Source: a virus (lineage: Duplodnaviria > Heunggongvirae > Uroviricota > Caudoviricetes). From it: 64,000 bases of DNA. The DNA is taken from the IMG/VR virus record IMGVR_UViG_2731957818_000004. One strand, written 5' to 3'. A model generated the notes under the pieces. That model was not told where the DNA came from, made no database searches, and saw nothing but the letters and a program-made list of their open reading frames with translations. This document shows positions 7,479-29,914 of the stretch, piece by piece. The position numbers were made by a program, and so were the translations under genes. Every line of letters starts with the position of its first letter. Position 1 is the stretch's first letter.

Positions 7479-7492
7479 GGTGATAATCCTTT

Positions 7493-12046: not shown

Positions 12047-12061
12047 CATGATTAGCTCCTT

Positions 12062-12122
12062 AAACAACTTGTTTTCTTGTTGGTGTTATTATCTCAAATA
12101 ACAAAAGGCAGAAAACAAGATG
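12062..12122. promoter_or_regulatory. Class A palindrome pair flanking the -10 of gene 11813..12046, one at about -40 and one at about +10.
   Basis: taaacaacttgttttc at 12062 and gaaaacaagatgttta at 12102. Confidence 0.55.
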
Positions 12123-12134
12123 TTTAAGGGATGA

Positions 12135-12401
12135 TTAGGTGAGTTTGAAGTCGTCTATGTCATCAACAAACTCCATATACCTGGCTTCGACACTAGACAG
12201 ACTGATCAGATACGCAAGCCCGTAACTAAGTGAAGTGGGTTGCTCCAGCACAAATTCGAACCCATCATCATGCGTTTTGCCAAGCCAGAATCCCCCACCG
12301 TATTCTTTTTCACGTTGGAAGAAAACGAACTGTCCTGGTATCAGGTGTTTGAGTGCTTCGCCTCTATAGACGATCTCATATTTGGAATTCTTGCTACCCA
12401 T
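12135..12401 (-). CDS. Hypothetical protein.
   Basis: GAGGGTG RBS. Confidence 0.45.
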   Translation of the reverse strand: MGSKNSKYEIVYRGEALKHLIPGQFVFFQREKEYGGGFWLGKTHDDGFEFVLEQPTSLSYGLAYLISLSSVEARYMEFVDDIDDFKLT

Positions 12402-12486
12402 TGTTCACCCTCAACACTGTATGTATAAACAGTAGTTTTTTTTACGGTACTGGTCAACTTTACTGGTTAATTGAATAACAAGGTGG

Positions 12487-12503
12487 TGAAAACAATTTGT
12501 TTC
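12487..12503. promoter_or_regulatory. Class A palindrome in a plus-strand promoter, for gene 12588..12791.
   Basis: gtgaaaacaatttgtttcgg. Confidence 0.5.
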
Positions 12504-12587
12504 GGAACTTGAGATTTTGCAAACCGCACATACATGAAAAGCGGCAATTTTTGAAACCTGATTTGACCCAAGTGAAAGGAGGAAACG

Positions 12588-12791
12588 ATGAAGACCTATG
12601 ATCGCAACCGTAACGCTATCACTACCGGCAGCCGAGTGATGGTGGCAACGAATGGTGCAACGGGAGTCATCAAGGAAATCTGCGGAGAAGGCAAATCAGA
12701 AGAACAATTACGCCGTTCTGACTGCGTGTCTATCGAAGGTGTGGAGGGTCTGTTCTGCCCAATGGATTTAGTTCGCCTGGGGTTCCATTAA
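12588..12791 (+). CDS. Small protein.
   Basis: AAGGAGG RBS. A class A palindrome sits in its promoter at 12487-12503. Confidence 0.5.
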   Translation: MKTYDRNRNAITTGSRVMVATNGATGVIKEICGEGKSEEQLRRSDCVSIEGVEGLFCPMDLVRLGFH

Positions 12792-12804
12792 TTTCACCAC
12801 CTAT

Positions 12805-12840
12805 AAAACAAATTGTTTAAGGCCACAAATAGTGGCCTTA
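12805..12840. terminator. Class A palindrome fused to a GGCCAC...GTGGCC terminator hairpin, between convergent genes.
   Basis: aaaacaaattgtttaaggccacaaatagtggcctta. Confidence 0.6.
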
Positions 12841-12846
12841 TCTGGC

Positions 12847-13551
12847 TTACGGAACAGCGGTAATCAGATCGCAAATGCCTGTTTTAGTTAAATCACTATT
12901 CAGCTTCTGAAAATTGGCATTCAGCATCGCGGTGTGTATTCGAGTCTCAAGCTCAAAGAAAAGGTCGATCTTGCCCTCTTTTGCTGCGTACTTCTTCCAG
13001 ACATTAACTTGGTCATCGGCAATGCGACTGGCGCAGGTGAATAAGAACGAACTCCCTCTGGGAAGGGATGTCGTGCTGTAGTATTCACCGTCAACTTCAA
13101 TATACTTAGCTCGGAATGACTCCAGAGTTAGCTCATCACCGCTCTTAGCCTGCTTTGCGTCTGCCTTGCTTGTCTTTTCCTGAACTTCAGGCTGCTTCTG
13201 CACCGGCTTCGGTGTCTCATTGACCACCGCTGTGCTGGCCGAACCATCCAACCCCTTGAGTCCATTAATTTGGATAAGATAAGCCAGCTCAAGAGCCTTA
13301 TCATCAGTGAGTCTTCCACGCATATTTATCCACTGACGTTGAACCGTCTTTAGGGTGTCTGCATTTTCTGGGTTAGCCTTGAGCGCGCTGGAATAGGTTG
13401 CGCTAAGTTGTTCGTCTAATTTTGACAGGCGTTCGTTGTCACAGATTTTGTGTTCGATTTCTGTCGAAGCCTTTTGGCAGTCAAAGCTGGCTGCAAAAGC
13501 AGCCGGCGATGCTACCAACAATGATGCCAGTAGGATATTTTTCATATTCAC
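12847..13551 (-). CDS. Secreted DUF1311 / LprI-like (lysozyme-inhibitor-fold) protein.
   Basis: Signal peptide. The CD..K..T..E..IC......L...Y...QWINMRG pattern is typical of DUF1311. Confidence 0.5.
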   Translation of the reverse strand: MNMKNILLASLLVASPAAFAASFDCQKASTEIEHKICDNERLSKLDEQLSATYSSALKANPENADTLKTVQRQWINMRGRLTDDKALELAYLIQINGLKGLDGSASTAVVNETPKPVQKQPEVQEKTSKADAKQAKSGDELTLESFRAKYIEVDGEYYSTTSLPRGSSFLFTCASRIADDQVNVWKKYAAKEGKIDLFFELETRIHTAMLNANFQKLNSDLTKTGICDLITAVP

Positions 13552-13583
13552 TCCATAAATATAAAAGCGCCTGACTATAACAC

Positions 13584-14135
13584 TTAACCGACTGCTTCTC
13601 TCGCTTGATCGTCAAGCGCTTTCAGCCCATCACGTACCGCGTTCACGATACGTTCCAGGTATTGGTATCTGGGGTTTGGCACCGTTGGCCAACCGGCATA
13701 CCACGGATCGTCACCAAACAGACTCAGCAGTTCGTTGCCGACACCGAAACAGCAGCAACTTTCTTTTACGTCATCAGCGTTTTCTGCCTCGTCCCACATA
13801 TTGCGGGCCTGTTCTGCGTCGATTTCTTTCTCCCTGCGCAACTTTATGATTTGGGACTTTACGAAAAGCAGGTTTGCGTCGTTGTCATCGTCGACCGTAC
13901 TCAGCAATTGAGGGTCGAGGCAACCAATCAAATAATCGTTGCTCACTCTCTTAATAAACGTCTGCACGTCATCACCGCCCATCGCGAACCAGGCAGCAGT
14001 CCATGCTTTCCCATAGCAGGTGATGGTGACTCTTCCCTTGCCCGGCTCGTAGTTTTCAATCATTACGCGTACCGGGTCGAGACGCTCCAGATCCGTCAGC
14101 ACAAAGGAAAGAACATCTATTTTTTCGACCTTCAT
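13584..14135 (-). CDS. Hypothetical protein translationally coupled to the alarmone hydrolase. Start moved to MKVEK.
   Basis: ATGA overlap with the stop of 14132..14773. Confidence 0.45.
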   Translation of the reverse strand: MKVEKIDVLSFVLTDLERLDPVRVMIENYEPGKGRVTITCYGKAWTAAWFAMGGDDVQTFIKRVSNDYLIGCLDPQLLSTVDDDNDANLLFVKSQIIKLRREKEIDAEQARNMWDEAENADDVKESCCCFGVGNELLSLFGDDPWYAGWPTVPNPRYQYLERIVNAVRDGLKALDDQAREAVG

Positions 14136-14773
14136 GCAGCCTCCCACGCGCCCCAGATCAGCGCTTTGTGTTTTTCATAACGTTTGGTGTGTACCGGTTG
14201 CAGACTGGCAATGCCTTTCGTCACCATCGCCCGGGCGTTTATCAGCAACGAATGCTCTATGCCTTTTTTCTCCAGGTACTCGACAACACCGGCATCGGCA
14301 CCAATCTCCTTGCCGTCAAAGAGTACGGCCAGCATCAGCTCTTTCTCTGCGAGGTAGATGGCTGAGAACTCAGGGTCGCGACTCACGATAGAAGAGGTAT
14401 TGTCCAGCAGGTCAGCCAGCTTGATCATGCGCGTCTGCATGTCGAGGCTTTGCTCCAGCTCCCGGACGTTGATGATGAAGCGCTGTATTCGATTGCCGTC
14501 TTCTGGTCTGGCAATGTTGGTCAGAGCCAGAACCATTTCGGCTACGTGCTCACCGAAGTGCCCACGAACCATCTCTATGGTGACATGGGTGTCTTCGACC
14601 ACATCATGCAGCAGCGCCGCGATCTGCATCTCCACGGTTCCACCATGCCAGGCAACAATCTCGCGGACTGCAACCGGGTGGTTGATGTAGTCTTCACCGG
14701 TATATTTTCTTTTCTGGCCAACGCCGCCATGAGCGCCAGCGGCAAACATATGGGCTTTGGAAATACGGGACAT
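14132..14773 (-). CDS. RelA/SpoT-family HD-domain (p)ppGpp / alarmone hydrolase (small alarmone hydrolase-like).
   Basis: Motifs HxxGQxRKYTGEDYINHPVAV, AALLHDVVEDT, FG..VAEMV, IKLADLLDN match the SpoT/Mesh1 HD domain. Start moved to MSRISK with a GGAG RBS; the track ORF extends through a terminator hairpin. Confidence 0.7.
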   Translation of the reverse strand: MSRISKAHMFAAGAHGGVGQKRKYTGEDYINHPVAVREIVAWHGGTVEMQIAALLHDVVEDTHVTIEMVRGHFGEHVAEMVLALTNIARPEDGNRIQRFIINVRELEQSLDMQTRMIKLADLLDNTSSIVSRDPEFSAIYLAEKELMLAVLFDGKEIGADAGVVEYLEKKGIEHSLLINARAMVTKGIASLQPVHTKRYEKHKALIWGAWEAA

Positions 14774-14826
14774 TCTTAACTCCGTTGTTTTCTGGATGTG
14801 GTTATTTTCACAGATAAGAAAAGGTA

Positions 14827-14861
14827 GAAAACAAATTGTTAAAGGCCACAATAGTGGCCTT
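14827..14861. terminator. Class A palindrome plus the same GGCCAC...GTGGCC hairpin, between 14865..15236 and the alarmone hydrolase gene.
   Basis: gaaaacaaattgttaaaggccacaatagtggcctt. Confidence 0.6.
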
Positions 14862-14864
14862 CAT

Positions 14865-15236
14865 TTACTCAGCGATAAGCGATCCAATCATCGCCTGTAG
14901 CTCTCGTTCTTTTTCTTTGGCTACGCGGAGTAATTCGGCATTTACATGACGTTGCAGCTTATCCATTACACGGAACGACGGACGGCGCATGACGCTCTCG
15001 TCGATGGCTTTGGTATTCAAGCTAATAAGATGCCCGAAGTGGTTGAAGCCAGCCCCGACGAACACTTCATATAGCTGGGCGTCGCGCTCAAACAGAGCTA
15101 TCCCATTTCGCACCTCAAGCAGCGTTCCTTCCTCAATAAGCGTATCCAGCGCCTTATCCCAGACCGGACAAAAGCGATAATTGAAACCTTCCAGTAATGC
15201 TGTAAAAAACAGCGAAACGGCATTACCCAACTTCAT
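14865..15236 (-). CDS. Hypothetical protein.
   Basis: ORF in an operon. The terminator hairpin at 14842-14861 follows it. Confidence 0.45.
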   Translation of the reverse strand: MKLGNAVSLFFTALLEGFNYRFCPVWDKALDTLIEEGTLLEVRNGIALFERDAQLYEVFVGAGFNHFGHLISLNTKAIDESVMRRPSFRVMDKLQRHVNAELLRVAKEKERELQAMIGSLIAE

Positions 15237-15238
15237 AG

Positions 15239-15529
15239 TTACTCTTCCTTACTCCTTGCTCTGTTAGCCTGCACTTCCTTAGCCAGCTCATAGGTAATTT
15301 TGCACGGCACAATCATCGCCCAGCCTTTTTCGTGGCTGTTAATCACCTGCTGAACATGGCCGTCTGTAATGGGCAGATCCGGCAACTGTTTAAAAACTTC
15401 CATCTGCTCATGGATATGCAGAAACCACCTTGCCAGCTCCATCTGCTCACCGCGGGTGAGGGGATTATCCAGCGGGGACTTAACAAAAGCGGAGACGCGC
15501 TCGACAGGCAGATCATTCATGCCGCGCAC
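15239..15529 (-). CDS. Hypothetical protein.
   Basis: Compactly packed ORF. Confidence 0.4.
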   Translation of the reverse strand: MRGMNDLPVERVSAFVKSPLDNPLTRGEQMELARWFLHIHEQMEVFKQLPDLPITDGHVQQVINSHEKGWAMIVPCKITYELAKEVQANRARSKEE

Positions 15530-16206
15530 CTCTCTGCTTTATCCTGCAATTCGCGGACATACTCGACCAAAGAGCCGCCTGGTGGGATCTGGCATTCCTC
15601 AACTAACTGGAAGTAGATGTCTGCGGCCGCGCGTGTGTTCGAGCCTTTGTTTAGCTGCTCTTCGCGCAGCGCATCACGTTCGTTGATCAAACGAACACAC
15701 TCGCCGTTACGCTGATCAACAACGGCCTCAAGTTCAGCGATACGTTCGCCTGGCGTCTTGCCTTCTTTGCGCTGGATGGTGACGGTAAACTCGCCCATTT
15801 CAGGAACGTTGTACCACAGCTCCAGGTAGTTTCTGGCGCCGCTGCGGACGAACTCACCTGCGAACATGGTGGCGAACATCGCAGAGGCCATTTCTCCTTT
15901 GAAAAGCGACTCCAGATCTAACGGAGTGCCGGCAGACAGAGCCTCTTTTGCTGTGTCCATTGCGTCCATGAACCGGTCGAACTCATTGGCGCGTTTCTCA
16001 AGGTCTCTCCACTGCTGGCTCCAACGGCGTGCCAGATGTTCGATAAAAACCTGCGCCGATTCATCAAAGTTACCTTCGAACGTCACAAGCTCCTTGTCGA
16101 TTTTGATGGTTCCGGCAGGCGTTCCTTCGTTCCCCTGTAGCACTAAACTAAATGGCAGCTTCGCCTGATTAACGCTGGCGAATGTAATTCTCGAGTTTTC
16201 GCTCAT
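15517..16206 (-). CDS. Hypothetical protein.
   Basis: A class B palindrome lies just upstream at 16247-16266. Confidence 0.5.
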   Translation of the reverse strand: MSENSRITFASVNQAKLPFSLVLQGNEGTPAGTIKIDKELVTFEGNFDESAQVFIEHLARRWSQQWRDLEKRANEFDRFMDAMDTAKEALSAGTPLDLESLFKGEMASAMFATMFAGEFVRSGARNYLELWYNVPEMGEFTVTIQRKEGKTPGERIAELEAVVDQRNGECVRLINERDALREEQLNKGSNTRAAADIYFQLVEECQIPPGGSLVEYVRELQDKAERCAA

Positions 16207-16246
16207 GTGTTCACCTCTGATAAAGTGGCTCTATTCTTACATAAAT

Positions 16247-16266
16247 TAGGTAAGTATTTACCTATC
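16247..16266. promoter_or_regulatory. Class B palindrome TAGGTAAGTATTTACCTATC.
   Basis: Perfect 7-bp arms. Upstream of 15517..16206. Confidence 0.55.
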
Positions 16267-17950
16267 ATTTTACGCGTTTGAAAACGTATACGCTTACAGT
16301 GATTCCGGTGTCTTCAAACTCGTCAGTAAACGACTTCCCTTTGGCATAAACGTAATTATCCAGCGTCATCCAGTTCAGAACTGGCGCATCACCCGGCAGT
16401 ACTGCCACCAGTCGCCCGCCGACTTTCAGATGCTCCAGCGCGGCCAGCGTATGCTCTCTGTGACGGCCAAGAGAGTAGGGCGGGTTCATGACGATTTTGT
16501 CGAACTGATAGCCTGCGTTGTCCTCAGACCACTTCATGAAGTCGCAGCAGACCGTATTTGTGTACCCCTTACCAAGCAGGATATCAGCGAAGAGAGGTGC
16601 GACTTCTATGCAGGTAACGTCTTCCGGATTAGCGTCGATGCAGGCCAGCAGATCTCCACGCCCGGCTTCAGGCTCCAGCAGCTTCTCACCTGGCTTCAGC
16701 TCAATGGCTCTGGCAACGTACTCCGCTATCAAACGTGGGGTAGGGTAGAACTGGTGTGATTTTGTATCCGGTATTAAGCCGGTGGCCACAATCGTATTGA
16801 GCGTATGGCCGATCTCATACGGGAACTGCCAGTGCTTTTTCTCCTGTACGCCGCCAATGAAGTTCAGTGTGCGCTCAAGCTCTTCCACCTGCGACTTCTG
16901 GAGGTTGGAATCAGAAAAGTACCAGACGCCTTTGTCTTTGCTGAATCGCCCGTCGCGCAGCGCGGTACGAACCGGCTCGGAGATCGTCTTCTGGATTAAC
17001 CCGAACTCTTTTGGTGCCCGTGTTTTGGGTGCAGTACGGCATGGCGCCGGGATTGCTGCAGGCATACTGTAAGCCAGCACCTCATTCAGCTTCCAGGCCA
17101 CGTCAGGATGTATTTCAAAGTGAACGTTGCCGTTCTTGAACATCTTCACGCGCATCAGGTTTCCGTCGACATTCATCCAGTCACCGGTCTGGCAGTCGTT
17201 TGCCCGGTACGCAGCTGATAGCATCTCAGTTGTGCGGTTGATGGTGATGAACTCTTTGTGTGCGAAGAAATGAAGCATGACGCGCAGGTCGTCGATGTAG
17301 TCCTCTTTCCGGTAGTTCACGCTGACGCTGTCCCGCCAGAACTCGGAAATGCAGTTGGCGATGATCAGACGCTCGCTAAAGCCGTTCGTCTTATTGGTCT
17401 TGTGGGCAGGACTCAGCGCTTTAAACAAGCCATACACGCGCTCAGAGAGATATTTGTGCCTGTCATTCAACAGATTGAGCATCGTGGGGATGACCGTTTC
17501 TGCTTTGAACTCCGGCACACCAACGAACTCCTTAACCTTCATCTGGTAGCCGGTTCTGTCAGTCCTGATGGTCTCCTGCTTGCCCTCGATAAACTGCTCA
17601 CGCCACTCGTCGCGGCGGGAAGCTGGCATGATCAGCAGAACGTTTGTCATATCCGTGACCTTCTTCCAGTACTCGGCCCAGATATTCTGTTTCACCCATT
17701 CAAGGTCGACCTTGTCCAGCCAGGCTCTGTTAAAGCGTGTGCGCTCGTCATCCGGCCGGTGGTTGAGTCGCAGCAGGCGGTTAATCATGTTGTGGCGTTC
17801 GTCGCCATAAACGAAGTCGTGAACCTGATGCATGAATGCGATCTCTTTCTCGCACTCGGCCACAATTTCGTGGATGACGTTCATTTCCTGCCGGTAGTCG
17901 ATATCAGTGTTTGGGGTGATAGCGTCAATGATGGAAAGGGCTGTATTCAT
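16265..17950 (-). CDS. DNA methyltransferase (N6-adenine or N4-cytosine) with a large N-terminal domain of unknown function.
   Basis: Motif I LLEPEAGRGDL and motif IV IVMNPPYS near the C-terminus. Start moved to MNTALS; the track TTG start lies in the UTR. Confidence 0.6.
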   Translation of the reverse strand: MNTALSIIDAITPNTDIDYRQEMNVIHEIVAECEKEIAFMHQVHDFVYGDERHNMINRLLRLNHRPDDERTRFNRAWLDKVDLEWVKQNIWAEYWKKVTDMTNVLLIMPASRRDEWREQFIEGKQETIRTDRTGYQMKVKEFVGVPEFKAETVIPTMLNLLNDRHKYLSERVYGLFKALSPAHKTNKTNGFSERLIIANCISEFWRDSVSVNYRKEDYIDDLRVMLHFFAHKEFITINRTTEMLSAAYRANDCQTGDWMNVDGNLMRVKMFKNGNVHFEIHPDVAWKLNEVLAYSMPAAIPAPCRTAPKTRAPKEFGLIQKTISEPVRTALRDGRFSKDKGVWYFSDSNLQKSQVEELERTLNFIGGVQEKKHWQFPYEIGHTLNTIVATGLIPDTKSHQFYPTPRLIAEYVARAIELKPGEKLLEPEAGRGDLLACIDANPEDVTCIEVAPLFADILLGKGYTNTVCCDFMKWSEDNAGYQFDKIVMNPPYSLGRHREHTLAALEHLKVGGRLVAVLPGDAPVLNWMTLDNYVYAKGKSFTDEFEDTGITVSVYVFKRVK

Positions 17951-17962
17951 GATTGCACCATT

Positions 17963-17977
17963 AAACAAATTGTTTTC
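17963..17977. promoter_or_regulatory. Class A palindrome, leader of the large methyltransferase gene.
   Basis: aaacaaattgttttc. Confidence 0.55.
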
Positions 17978-26526: not shown

Positions 26527-27642
26527 TCACACCGCCACTGGAACCTTGATCCACGGAAGAGGGCTGTAGCCGCACACCTGCACACCTTCCCATTTGAAGT
26601 CGTCCAGTTCGGCCCATTCAGGCGGAAAAATGACAACCGGGTCGGACTCTTTGGGCGGCTCGCGCTTCATCAGCTCCTCAACGCCTTCCATGTGGTTGTC
26701 GTAGAGATGAACGTCAAAGCCAAAATGCACGAATGCGCCAGCCATGTGGCCGGTGATCTTCGCGAGGAAGTGGGTGAGAATGCCGTAACCGGCGATGTTG
26801 AACGGCATACCAACAAAGGTATCGACGCTGCGCTGCACCAGACATGAGTTCAGAATGCGTTTCGGGATGCCCAGCTCGTCCAGCATGTTCTCAGTAATGC
26901 CGCCATCTCTTTCCAGAAGACACAGCATCTGGGTGTAAATGGATTCGTGGCCGTGGCGGTTGTGCTGGATGCCAATGTCGGTGGCCATCGTCAGTCGAGT
27001 CTCAAAGTCCAGCTCGCGACTCCACAGTGAAAACACGAAATGGCATGGCGGCAGCTTCATATCTTCCAGTTCGCCAACATTCCAGGCATTCAGCAGGATG
27101 CGACGATCTGTCGGGTTGGTGCGAAGCGTGTGAACGATACGCTGTAGCTGGTCGATTTCACGGGACAACACAACGCGATCTTCACTTACGCCCAGATACC
27201 CCTCAACCTTGTAACCGCGCTCACGGAACGTGTCGATTTTGCTCAAATACTCGCTATGGCTCACGATGCGGGTATCTTCCCACCGACGCCATTGTTTGCC
27301 ATAGACCGGGCCTAAATCGCCATTTTCATCAGCCCAGGCATCCCAGATTTTGACGCCATTGTCTTTCAGGAACTGGATGTTGCCCGTTCCTTTGAGATAC
27401 CACTCCAGCTCAACCAGTAACGGCTTCAGGTTGACGGCTTTTCCGGAGATAAGTGGAACAGAGCCGCCCGTCAGCATGTAGTAGGAAGGGACATATGAAA
27501 CGCTTTTTGTGCCGGTTCCGGTGCGATCACCCGCGTGAACGCCAGTGTTGAGCACCGTTTCAACCACTTTGGCATACGAACCACTGGCAAACTGACCGTT
27601 CGTAAAGTCTCGATTCAGTAGGATAGACAAAATCAACCTCAC
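26527..27642 (-). CDS. thyA: Thymidylate synthase. The N-terminal start is uncertain; a GTG or TTG start is possible.
   Basis: GDRTGTGT...LKPLLVELEWYLKGTGNIQFL..NGVKIWDAWADENGDLGPVYGKQWR, close to E. coli ThyA. Confidence 0.85.
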   Translation of the reverse strand: MRLILSILLNRDFTNGQFASGSYAKVVETVLNTGVHAGDRTGTGTKSVSYVPSYYMLTGGSVPLISGKAVNLKPLLVELEWYLKGTGNIQFLKDNGVKIWDAWADENGDLGPVYGKQWRRWEDTRIVSHSEYLSKIDTFRERGYKVEGYLGVSEDRVVLSREIDQLQRIVHTLRTNPTDRRILLNAWNVGELEDMKLPPCHFVFSLWSRELDFETRLTMATDIGIQHNRHGHESIYTQMLCLLERDGGITENMLDELGIPKRILNSCLVQRSVDTFVGMPFNIAGYGILTHFLAKITGHMAGAFVHFGFDVHLYDNHMEGVEELMKREPPKESDPVVIFPPEWAELDDFKWEGVQVCGYSPLPWIKVPVAV

Positions 27643-27646
27643 ACAA

Positions 27647-27665
27647 GATAAGTAAGTACATACAT
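27647..27665. promoter_or_regulatory. Class B-like motif GATAAGTAAGTACATACAT.
   Basis: Immediately upstream of thyA. Confidence 0.45.
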
Positions 27666-27800
27666 ATTATTTTATACAAGTTTATCTGTCAGAAGTGTGT
27701 AAGGCTAGGAGGGGAGTAAAAAAAATGGTGGCTCTTAGGCCACCATTGCAATGAGCAATTAATAACTTGGACAATAAAACACGCCCAGGCAATATATAAT

Positions 27801-27820
27801 GATAAGTAGATACTTACAAT
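27801..27820. promoter_or_regulatory. Class B-like motif GATAAGTAGATACTTACAAT.
   Basis: Between the MazG-like gene and the thyA terminator/promoter. Confidence 0.45.
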
Positions 27821-28755
27821 TATTTTTTTACCATCTCGTAAAGAGATGAGGCTTTCGCCTTCTCAACAAAGCGAGTCAGATCCACATCGCTGTAGGTTGG
27901 GAATTTGAGGATCTTGCCATCAGAAACTCTGAAGCCAATCATCATGTCAGTCCCTTCAGCGTGGCGGAAGCCCAGATCTTCCTTGTCGTATTTGCAATTC
28001 TCTACCGCCACACGACGCTCTTCGGCGTCAGCCGGCCACAGCTTGGTCATGTTGGAACGATGGATTTCTGCCACCAGCTCAACAATATCGATACCGAGAA
28101 AATCAGCCAGGCGGTAGGTCATCATGCAGGCAACGTAGATTTTGTTCATCACGCGGCGCAGCTCCTGCACCAATTCGGAATCGTTAATCGGCTTCGCTTC
28201 GAGTTTGTCAGCCAGTGCATTCAGCATTAATGCAGCTTCTTTTGCTTCTTCAAACGGGATGGCCATGTCGTCAAAGACCGTGTTGCCTGGAACCATGATG
28301 GTGTGGATGAAGCGATCAACACTCTGCTCTTGGGTGTAGTAGCTCATGCCTGTAGAGATACCGCCTTTGATGGCCACCATTGTGCCGACGCCCACGTAAA
28401 GGAAGTCAGCCATCGCATCCAGCAGCGCCGTCATGTCCCCGTTTTTAGCTGCCGGGATGCCCTCGGTAACAGCTTCTTCGTGGATCAGCTTGGCACGCAG
28501 ACGCAGTAGTGCCGGATCTGGAATGGCACGGCGTGGGTGCTGAAACAGTGTGTGGAACTGGTCAACCATCAGGTAGATGCTTTCCGTTGCCTTGCCAAAA
28601 CCGGGATTCAACTCGTAAGGCTCTGGCTTAAATCCCACGAGTTTGTCTGCGGCAAGTTTCAGATGATCGGTCAGTTTCGTAAATTTCATGTCTTCTTTCT
28701 TTCCTTTGGACTTCATTTGATACGTCAATTGTGACCCAGCAGCGCCAGGCCACAA
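27820..28755 (-). CDS. MazG-like all-alpha NTP pyrophosphohydrolase (tandem-domain candidate).
   Basis: LRAKLIHEEAVE...ALLDAMADFLYV (EExxE...DxxxD/E pattern) and a C-terminal LGIDIVELVAEIHRSNMTK resembling the MazG C-terminus. Confidence 0.4.
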   Translation of the reverse strand: MWPGAAGSQLTYQMKSKGKKEDMKFTKLTDHLKLAADKLVGFKPEPYELNPGFGKATESIYLMVDQFHTLFQHPRRAIPDPALLRLRAKLIHEEAVTEGIPAAKNGDMTALLDAMADFLYVGVGTMVAIKGGISTGMSYYTQEQSVDRFIHTIMVPGNTVFDDMAIPFEEAKEAALMLNALADKLEAKPINDSELVQELRRVMNKIYVACMMTYRLADFLGIDIVELVAEIHRSNMTKLWPADAEERRVAVENCKYDKEDLGFRHAEGTDMMIGFRVSDGKILKFPTYSDVDLTRFVEKAKASSLYEMVKK

Positions 28756-28771
28756 AGTGGTTAAACTCGGC

Positions 28772-29914
28772 TTAAAGGTCTGCGAACTGGCTCAGGCCGG
28801 AGCGATCGACAGCGGAGTCAATCTGGCCAACGAGGTAGTTGCTTTGTTCAGCTTCCTGCGGAGCGATCTGCAGGGTGTCTGACAGCAGCCATTTGTTCAT
28901 CCATACCAGTGGATCGTCTTTGATTTCCGGGAACAGCGGTCGCAGCCCAAGACGACGCATTGCCAGGTTGGTGCGGTATTTCACATAGCTTTTGAGGATG
29001 TCGGCATTCAAGCCAATCATTGAGCCGTCTTTAAACAGATAGTCAGCCCAGCGCATTTCCTGCCCGGCCACGTCCATCATGGTCTGATAGATGAAGCTCT
29101 CTTCTTCTGCGGCAATCATCTTCCACATCAGACCTTCACGACCGGTACGCATAAAACGGATCATGCGTTCAGTACCTTCGCAATGCAGAGCCTCGTCGCG
29201 CGCGATGAAGCGCATGATCTTCGTGTTGCCCTCCAGCAGCTTCCGCTCACCAAAGGCGAACGTACACGCAAAGCTCACGTAGAAGCGAATCGCCTCCAGT
29301 GCATTCACCGACACCAGTGTTCGGAACAGCTGGCGCTGGAGAGGGTAGGGCTTGCCATCAAACTCGCTGACATACAGCCGTTCAAATTCGTCTTCACCAA
29401 GATGCTGGCGAGCGCAGGTCATTTCGTACAGCCTGTCATATTCGCTTGAGATGCTTACAGCCCGGCTGATGATCTCTTCGTCCGTGACGATGCCGTCGAA
29501 AACGATGCTCGGGTCATCCACCATACCGCGGATAATGTGGGTATAGCTGCGGCTGTGAATCGTCTCAGAGAACGACCAGGTCTCAACCCATGTCTCCAGC
29601 TCAGGAATGGAGATCAGCGGCAGTAGTGTTGCGTTTGGACTGCGACCCTGAACGGAATCCAACAACGTCTGGTAACGCAGGTTGCTCAGGAAAATATGGC
29701 GTTCGTGCTCTTGCAGCTTGGTATTGAAGTCGATGCGGTCAGTGGTAATGTCGACTTCTTCAGGGCGCCAGAAGAACGAAAGTTGTTTCTCAATCAGCTT
29801 TTCGAAGTCACGGTACTTTTGCTGATCGTAGCGTGCTACGTTGACAGACTGGCCGAGGAACATAGGTTCCTTCGTTGCGTCGTTAGCGCCCAAACGGAAA
29901 GTAGAATAAGTCAT
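28772..29914 (-). CDS. nrdB: Ribonucleotide reductase class Ia beta subunit.
   Basis: [40 protein letters not shown]...IGLN.D....YV.Y.......LGL...F. Nearly collinear with E. coli NrdB, including the C-terminal SQFADL. Confidence 0.9.

Follow-up and report, generated by a model that had tools for sequence, protein, structure and literature searches.

PaSpo, a stand-alone small alarmone hydrolase of an SSU5-like phage-plasmid, and its accessory-gene neighbours

We analysed a 64,000-nucleotide stretch of viral DNA (IMG/VR record IMGVR_UViG_2731957818_000004; hereafter, the window) at positions 12847-16206, where a gene for an HD-domain protein of 213 amino acids (aa) lies among short genes of the same strand. 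On its motifs and its near-identity to a protein of Salmonella phage SSU5, this gene is that of a RelA/SpoT-family small alarmone hydrolase (SAH) of the PaSpo subfamily. In the reading that we favour with high confidence, it is the paSpo gene of a phage-plasmid and codes for a stand-alone Mn-dependent HD hydrolase, probably made from a promoter of its own, while the genes around it are independent accessory genes. A preliminary description of this DNA had proposed a phage-borne alarmone hydrolase; that central idea is right but already published, because the 99%-identical PaSpo of SSU5 has been characterised. The window therefore contributes context rather than discovery, namely a gain/loss polymorphism of paSpo and an apparent repressor-type promoter belonging to the gene itself.

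A PaSpo-type hydrolase on a phage-plasmid

Over residues 8-135, the 213-aa protein scored 65.8 bits for the Pfam domain HD_4 (PF13328; cut-off 27.2), and it also matched HD (PF01966). It gave no other domain match, and TIGR00691 (spoT_relA) aligned at model positions 1-123 of 687, the N-terminal hydrolase part only; the protein is thus single-domain and lacks a synthetase domain. Its motifs are AHGGVGQKRKYTGEDYINHP, AALLHDVVEDT and KLADLLDN, and the functional roles of the residues in SAH motifs are established for the family. When the protein was aligned to MESH1 (3nr1), Lmo0812 (4yf1) and Mycobacterium Rel (5xnx), H32, H55-D56, E59-D60, D121 and N125 fell on the columns of the HP, HD, ED and AD..N motifs, and K21-R22-K23 on that of the basic motif. 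The full SpoT/Mesh1 HD signature read earlier from the sequence was borne out, with all catalytic motifs present and HD_4 above its cut-off, and the conserved Mn-binding His and Asp residues were kept on alignment to MESH1 and Rel. Two of the motifs had been spelled correctly (AALLHDVVEDT and KLADLLDN), but the third, given as HxxGQxRK, is one residue longer and reads HxxxGQxRK. In a PDB sequence search, Rel/SpoT hydrolase domains came up, among them those of Lmo0812, Mycobacterium Rel and human MESH1 (E = 1e-13 to 1e-8).

Like human and Drosophila MESH1 and the bacterial SAHs (ATfaRel, Lmo0812 and Aph1-type (p)ppApp hydrolases), the protein has a single HD_4 domain with the H..HD..ED..D..N constellation, but it is only about 30% identical to them and over residues 6-135 only. 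It differs further in an extra C-terminal region of about 60 residues, which most phage homologues lack, and in not being paired with a gene for a toxic small alarmone synthetase (toxSAS). SAH homologues were found in 250 phage records, most matches covering residues 1-155.

The SSU5 protein SSU5_099 (YP_006906731) is of equal length and identical at 211 of 213 residues, the two substitutions being E71G and N208G. We assigned the protein to the PaSpo subfamily through this 99% identity, since the SSU5 protein has itself been assigned to PaSpo (Jimmy et al.; PMC7229694). At the DNA level, window positions 12500-16500 are 95.4% identical to SSU5 over their full length and 99.4% identical to plasmids of about 108-117 kb from the Enterobacter hormaechei/cloacae complex and Citrobacter. 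At least part of this segment is shared by 389 plasmid records, 377 of which are predicted to be non-mobilizable. Because of the identity to SSU5 and to these mostly non-mobilizable plasmids, the window is identified as an SSU5-like phage-plasmid. It differs from SSU5 in host background, the closest plasmids being those of Enterobacter and Citrobacter, but paSpo has the same neighbours in both: the PF26211 gene with its ATGA overlap, the LprI gene, the Eaa gene and the DUF4942 methyltransferase gene, along with the hairpin and promoter block upstream. The SSU5 RefSeq record carries the genes of the locus as SSU5_095 to SSU5_101, and ydfZ as SSU5_102.

Expressed alone from a plasmid in E. coli, PaSpo of SSU5 neutralises CapRel, PhRel, PhRel2, FaRel and FaRel2, which were all five of the toxic synthetases tested (Jimmy et al. 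2020; PMC7229694 Table 1). Its co-expression has become a routine means of detoxifying FaRel2, PhRel2 and CapRel-SJ46 during protein production (PMC11559606; bioRxiv 10.1101/2021.04.30.441581; PMC9712102). According to the authors, the modification that FaRel2 places on tRNA is taken off by PaSpo (PMC11559606), and removal of the tRNA 3'-pyrophosphate in vitro was shown for the related SAHs MESH1 and ATfaRel (bioRxiv 10.1101/2021.04.30.441581). The role against alarmone-synthetase toxins that had been suggested for the window gene was thus already demonstrated for its 99%-identical counterpart (PMC7229694 Table 1; PMC11559606).

On the strength of its family and of this work on the orthologue, PaSpo of the window would strip off the 3'-pyrophosphate attached by RelA/SpoT-type synthetases, from (p)ppGpp and (pp)pApp as well as from the pyrophosphorylated 3'-CCA ends of tRNAs. 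Growth arrest by toxSAS of the CapRel, PhRel and FaRel types, which serve bacteria as toxin-antitoxin or abortive-infection defences, would thereby be undone, and host (p)ppGpp could fall as well. As in toxSAS-SAH modules such as FaRel-ATfaRel, the hydrolase can then act as an antitoxin by reversing the product of the toxin (PMC7229694), but here no synthetase toxin gene adjoins it, which makes PaSpo an orphan, phage-borne 'pan-antitoxin'. A Pfam scan of the nine open reading frames (ORFs) at 12135-17968 detected no RelA_SpoT synthetase beside paSpo, and PADLOC, run on the seven genes at 12847-17968, found no defence-system match among the six from the 229-aa gene to the LprI-like gene. Against RelA/SpoT-type toxins, CapRel and FaRel2 among them, phage SAHs of this kind are the natural countermeasure, and the SSU5 protein has become the laboratory workhorse for this purpose.

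We also considered that, instead of countering toxins, the HD protein might mainly break down host (p)ppGpp and so forestall the stringent response in lytic growth or while the plasmid is maintained. Its homology to the domains with which Rel/SpoT and MESH1 hydrolyse (p)ppGpp is consistent with such a role, as is the presence of SAH homologues in many virulent jumbo phages among the 250 phage records; in addition, one lambdoid prophage has an SAH gene directly after a TraR-like gene. The homologues of the TraR-like protein, TraR of the F plasmid and Orf73 of lambda, are relatives of DksA that reprogram host transcription (PMC9239242). The published phenotype, however, is toxin neutralisation. 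The two roles are mutually compatible, but we regard host (p)ppGpp as a rather doubtful candidate for the main target.

The lambdoid prophage just mentioned (L090:5001-7124) carries a PF26211 gene followed by the TraR/DksA-like gene, whose stop codon overlaps the start of the SAH gene; this SAH is distant, with 184 aa and 37% identity to PaSpo. Next, upstream of xis and int, comes a small ORF resembling an all-alpha pyrophosphatase. The TraR-like factor and the likely ppGpp hydrolase beside it may amount to a coordinated takeover of stringent control.

A probable promoter of its own and the likely limits of the transcription units

All genes at 12847-16206 lie on the minus strand (Table 1). 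The three upstream genes are tightly packed, the 229-aa and Eaa-like genes sharing an ATGA overlap and the Eaa-like and 123-aa genes being separated by 5 nt. The stop codon of the 123-aa gene is directly followed by a hairpin of 10 pairs that a scan flagged as terminator-like; the 61-nt stretch containing it has an RNA free energy of -18.2 kcal/mol (z = -3.5). In a Klebsiella SSU5-like plasmid whose PaSpo is 85% identical, the Eaa-like and 123-aa genes are absent while the hairpin, the promoter block and paSpo are kept, and the hairpin stem is preserved through two compensatory pair changes (GGCCAC/GTGGCC to GGCTAT/ATAGCC). The promoter block itself hardly differs between the window, SSU5 and the Klebsiella plasmid.

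Table 1. Features of the paSpo locus and its surroundings, in order of transcription for the minus-strand genes, followed by ydfZ and the regulatory elements
Feature	Position	Strand	Remarks
DUF4942 methyltransferase, 561/567 aa	16265-17968	-	first in transcription order
229-aa protein	15517-16206	-	phrog_8364 match
Eaa-like protein, 93/96 aa	15239-15520	-	phrog_10451 match; SSU5_097 annotated 'putative Eaa protein'
123-aa protein	14865-15236	-	phrog_16975 match; last gene before hairpin
paSpo, 213-aa RelA/SpoT-family SAH (PaSpo subfamily, by sequence)	14132..14773	-	ATG at 14773
183-aa PF26211 (Phage_phiTE_072) protein	13584..14135	-	ATG overlaps paSpo stop (ATGA)
LprI/DUF1311-domain protein, 232 aa, predicted exported; C-terminal domain without assignment	12847..13545	-	PF07007
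ydfZ	12588-12791	+	convergent with lprI-like gene
Terminator-like hairpin AAGGCCAC-TATT-GTGGCCTT	14840..14863	-	between 123-aa gene and paSpo
Promoter/operator-like block, 'class A' repeat family, with Shine-Dalgarno (SD) sequence	14777..14847	-	repeat family D2
Hairpin, second copy, with AAACAATTTGTTTT	12819..12839 (with AAACAATTTGTTTT, 12839..12802)	.	between convergent lprI-like gene and ydfZ
Palindrome GATAGGTAAATACTTACCTA, second repeated regulatory element	16244..16269	.	repeat family D4, just upstream of 229-aa gene

After the hairpin comes a 71-nt copy of a unit that is repeated about 15 times in the window before minus-strand genes (families D1/D2). Alignment of 16 copies revealed a common layout, with an upstream terminator tail, an extended -10 element TGnGAtAAT, the 26-nt block ACACCAACAAGAAAACAAnTTGTTTA, an SD sequence and the ATG; the block holds the palindrome AAACAAnTTGTTT and abuts the SD sequence. 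In the paSpo copy, the extended -10 element TGTGAAAAT (14812..14804) and the upstream palindrome AACAATTTGTT are kept, and the leader is conserved but degenerate: from 14802 it agrees in 18 positions with the 26-nt consensus, one position of which is free. Copies of the unit lie at 7491, 7982, 8937, 9526, 10737, 10969, 12060, 14777, 17961, 18684, 19683, 29945, 41153, 42375, 51002 and 57309 (window 7491-57339). Together they look like a regulon of some 15 early promoters under one DNA-binding protein.

From these features, paSpo probably has an extended -10 promoter of its own, under a palindromic operator common to about 15 other early genes, and the hairpin would insulate this promoter from the three upstream genes. 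The PF26211 gene that overlaps paSpo would probably be co-transcribed with it, and perhaps the LprI-like gene too. The far end of this putative unit is marked by a second hairpin followed by AAACAATTTGTTTT, downstream of the LprI gene, which is 93% identical to the copy upstream of paSpo (family D16). The most likely layout is therefore a first unit of the 229-aa, Eaa-like and 123-aa genes, then the hairpin, the promoter/operator driving paSpo, the PF26211 gene and possibly lprI, and finally the second hairpin.

Earlier, the whole segment had been described as one operon under a class A promoter. The three tightly packed upstream genes and a block of the class A family are indeed there, but a single operon does not fit: because the hairpin and the promoter/operator block directly precede paSpo, the upstream genes probably form a separate unit, and the 229-aa gene is preceded by a different repeated palindrome, GATAGGTAAnTACTTACCTATC (family D4, 7 copies). 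A single operon reaching from 16206 to 12847, with its transcription starting upstream of the 229-aa gene, would agree with the common strand, the short gaps throughout and the imperfect U-tract of the hairpin, which makes some read-through plausible. It is hard to square with a hairpin conserved through compensatory changes, with a conserved extended -10/operator block directly before paSpo, and with the Klebsiella locus, where the 96-aa and 123-aa genes are missing yet the hairpin, block and paSpo persist. We consider a single operon unlikely and prefer a separate paSpo unit.

The GATAGGTAAnTACTTACCTATC palindrome occurs at 16244, 20545, 22799, 27646, 37077, 43521 and 63397, upstream of further groups of genes, the 229-aa gene among them; at 27646 it separates the MazG-like gene from that for thymidylate synthase. 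It probably represents a second operator or promoter class.

One copy of the class A unit (12055-12135, minus strand) has both flanking palindromes intact and folds into an RNA hairpin of -29.8 kcal/mol (z = -7.4), with a sub-threshold Rfam match to RNA-OUT (E = 0.077). We rejected the idea that the unit is generally a structured RNA, since strong folding was confined to this copy and absent from that of paSpo and from three further ones.

The PF26211 gene and the gain and loss of paSpo

The ATGA overlap between the TGA of the hydrolase gene and the ATG of the 183-aa gene, described earlier as translational coupling, was confirmed. A Pfam scan with the 183-aa protein itself gave no match, and its homologues listed at 65-98% identity all (120/120) carry the precomputed PF26211 (Phage_phiTE_072) domain; through them, the protein is a member of this family, which an exhaustive search placed at 1127 representatives at 50% identity. 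Structure prediction, proposed earlier for this presumed partner, yielded a confident model, but the predicted fold matched no solved structure and a PDB sequence search found none either. Neither the Ea22-like nor the Eae-like protein of phage Cyrano proved homologous to the 183-aa protein, nor did the Ead/Ea22-like protein of ev099.

In Klebsiella and E. coli prophages, the PF26211 gene sits in the early-left (exo-xis/'ea') region, near RecT, YqaJ and MT-A70 genes and then a TraR-like or DUF7739 gene, with Lar upstream in E. coli and no SAH gene. We surveyed 80 IMG/VR loci by a scan with this single protein. SSU5-like loci with paSpo directly upstream accounted for 16 of them and SSU5-like loci without paSpo for 3. 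The other 61 have neither the SSU5-type methyltransferase nor PaSpo, although in one of them a distantly related SAH gene (37% identity) follows some 0.5 kb downstream. At 63 of the 80 loci there is no SAH nearby.

The survey bears on the possibility that paSpo belongs to a single functional module with the PF26211 and LprI-like genes, in which the PF26211 protein would be a regulator, a specificity factor or a second enzyme working with the hydrolase. Apart from the ATGA overlap, such a module would account for the PF26211 gene lying directly downstream in all 16 SSU5-like viral loci with paSpo, for the retention of the pair and its overlap among otherwise different neighbours in the Klebsiella lineage, whose two proteins are 85% and 76% identical, and for the two copies of the D16 hairpin that bracket the trio. 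Against it, PF26211 is a very large family found mostly in lambdoid prophages beside DUF7739, TraR-like or Lar genes, with no SAH; the PF26211 gene stays when paSpo has been deleted (loci L014, L023, L024 and L053); another Klebsiella phage-plasmid has a PaSpo of 55% identity, upstream of the methyltransferase, with no PF26211 gene; and PaSpo alone neutralises every toxin tested (PMC7229694). A dedicated PaSpo-PF26211 partnership is not supported by these comparisons, and we judge a three-gene module very unlikely. The neighbours would instead be independent accessory genes of the 'ea/exo-xis' type and not subunits of the hydrolase.

Loss of paSpo is seen in an E. hormaechei sister plasmid (L014), which lacks window positions 15905..14160, or 1.75 kb including paSpo. 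Through the deletion, residues 1-99 of the 229-aa protein run on in frame into PF26211; the resulting fusion protein of 274 aa (P0009) corresponds to phrog_3451. The junction (L014:6289-6300) shows a 9-nt microhomology, GATCTGGRG, within a 12-nt BLAST overlap of window positions 15906-15917 and 14148-14159, and flank identity to the window changes across it from 99.3% to 91.7%. The linker of the fusion, RVGGC, is the 3' end of paSpo read in another frame, and the C-terminus of PaSpo, KALIWGAWE[A/S]A, is conserved in Klebsiella. For these two reasons we interpret the fusion as a secondary deletion and rejected the converse order, an ancestral fusion into which paSpo was inserted later. PaSpo of at least 80% identity is encoded in 169 plasmid records, and a truncated copy in two further plasmids. 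The 169 carriers stand among about 390 related plasmids, most of them non-mobilizable, from Salmonella, Enterobacter, Escherichia, Klebsiella and Citrobacter; among the matches listed, the related plasmids measure about 105-135 kb. paSpo is thus variable cargo, with a gain/loss polymorphism.

Several observations weigh against our reading of paSpo as an independently expressed anti-toxin hydrolase with unrelated neighbours. Its promoter has no recognisable -35 element and was missed by a consensus scan, and the U-tract of the hairpin is interrupted, so that some read-through from the upstream genes is possible. The overlap of paSpo with the PF26211 gene is conserved in 16 of 16 SSU5-like viral loci with paSpo, and a functional link is possible. 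In the literature on PaSpo itself we found in-vivo neutralisation and no in-vitro substrate data, and that evidence comes from outside SSU5-like infection or lysogeny, the candidate targets being toxSAS defences, host ppGpp and incoming (p)ppApp toxins. The leads that remain are modest: the natural role of PaSpo in the phage-plasmid life cycle, its probable dedicated promoter under operator control and the fold of the PF26211 protein.

Accessory genes and the nucleotide-metabolism cluster

Homologues of the 229-aa, Eaa-like, PF26211 and LprI-like proteins occur in lambdoid and P22-like prophages, so that the locus resembles the lambdoid exo-xis/ea region with its Ead/Ea22, Eaa, TraR/Orf73 and Lar genes. 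It differs in its phage-plasmid setting, in its position downstream of a DUF4942 methyltransferase gene and in the element's own repeated promoter/operator. Residues 1-103 of the 229-aa protein match positions 1-103 of phrog_3451, and its N-terminal ~100 aa recur in other elements as a module joined to PF26211. In Cyrano the homologue carries the annotation Ead-Ea22, and a PDB sequence search with the 229-aa protein found no match.

The 232-aa product of the last gene of the locus matched PF07007 over residues 25-80 with 29.9 bits (cut-off 22), covering profile positions 1-70 of 106 only. Its N-terminus, MKNILLASLLVASPAAFA followed by AS, reads as a Sec-type signal with an AxA cleavage site and no lipobox. 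This agrees with the LprI/DUF1311-like protein with a signal-like N-terminus that had been described next to the hydrolase. Cys residues 23, 35, 172 and 225 are conserved. In the predicted structure, the helices of residues 20-100 reached a predicted local distance difference test (pLDDT) score of 76-89, and the C-terminal half had no confident model (overall pLDDT 49.8); a PDB sequence search gave no match. Such a protein had been thought unusual cargo for a phage, but homologues are present in 77 phage records, including a copy of 80% identity in the exo-xis region of the lambdoid phage ev099; the distant copies are mostly in Aeromonas and Klebsiella phages of 160-230 kb. The name LprI/DUF1311 is no guarantee of lysozyme inhibition.

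Signal-peptide proteins with an LprI domain are predicted orphan immunity proteins, directed at lysozyme-like type VI secretion system (T6SS) effectors (PMC9796082). One could accordingly picture the hairpin-bracketed trio as a lysogenic-conversion cassette from which a plasmid-prophage shields its host against toxins used between bacteria or in defence. In this picture, PaSpo would undo the products of (p)ppApp-forming and tRNA-pyrophosphorylating synthetase toxins, the exported LprI-domain protein would act in the manner of the predicted orphan T6SS immunity proteins (PMC9796082), and the PF26211 protein would be an accessory or anti-defence factor of new fold. We regard this as highly improbable.

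The DUF4942 and class I S-adenosylmethionine-dependent methyltransferase protein (16265-17968) belongs to phrog_6263 and gave a PADLOC match to a 'mad2'-like methyltransferase. In every SSU5-like relative examined, its gene is conserved directly upstream of the variable accessory genes, and the protein is probably an anti-restriction self-methylase.

A MazG-like gene at 27820..28755 had been put forward as a second alarmone-degrading activity of the element, a proposal that our data do not sustain. The only Pfam match of this ORF was PRA-PH (PF01503; 37.5 bits), not a ppGpp-related family, and it falls in phrog_671, 'nucleotide pyrophosphohydrolase'. DR2231 is a dUTPase-like enzyme. Against solved structures, the ORF product gave weak matches (E about 1e-3) to DR2231, a MazG-like nucleoside triphosphate (NTP) pyrophosphohydrolase, and to an unrelated IPT/TIG-domain protein. 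Because the gene lies between those for the ribonucleotide reductase small chain (nrdB) and thymidylate synthase (thyA), it is far more likely to act on the deoxynucleoside triphosphate pool than in alarmone degradation. The nucleotide-metabolism cluster as a whole spans 26527-29914 on the minus strand and comprises the ribonucleotide reductase small chain, the all-alpha NTP pyrophosphatase and thymidylate synthase, the last of which is unusually long (371 aa), with its Pfam match split in two stretches.

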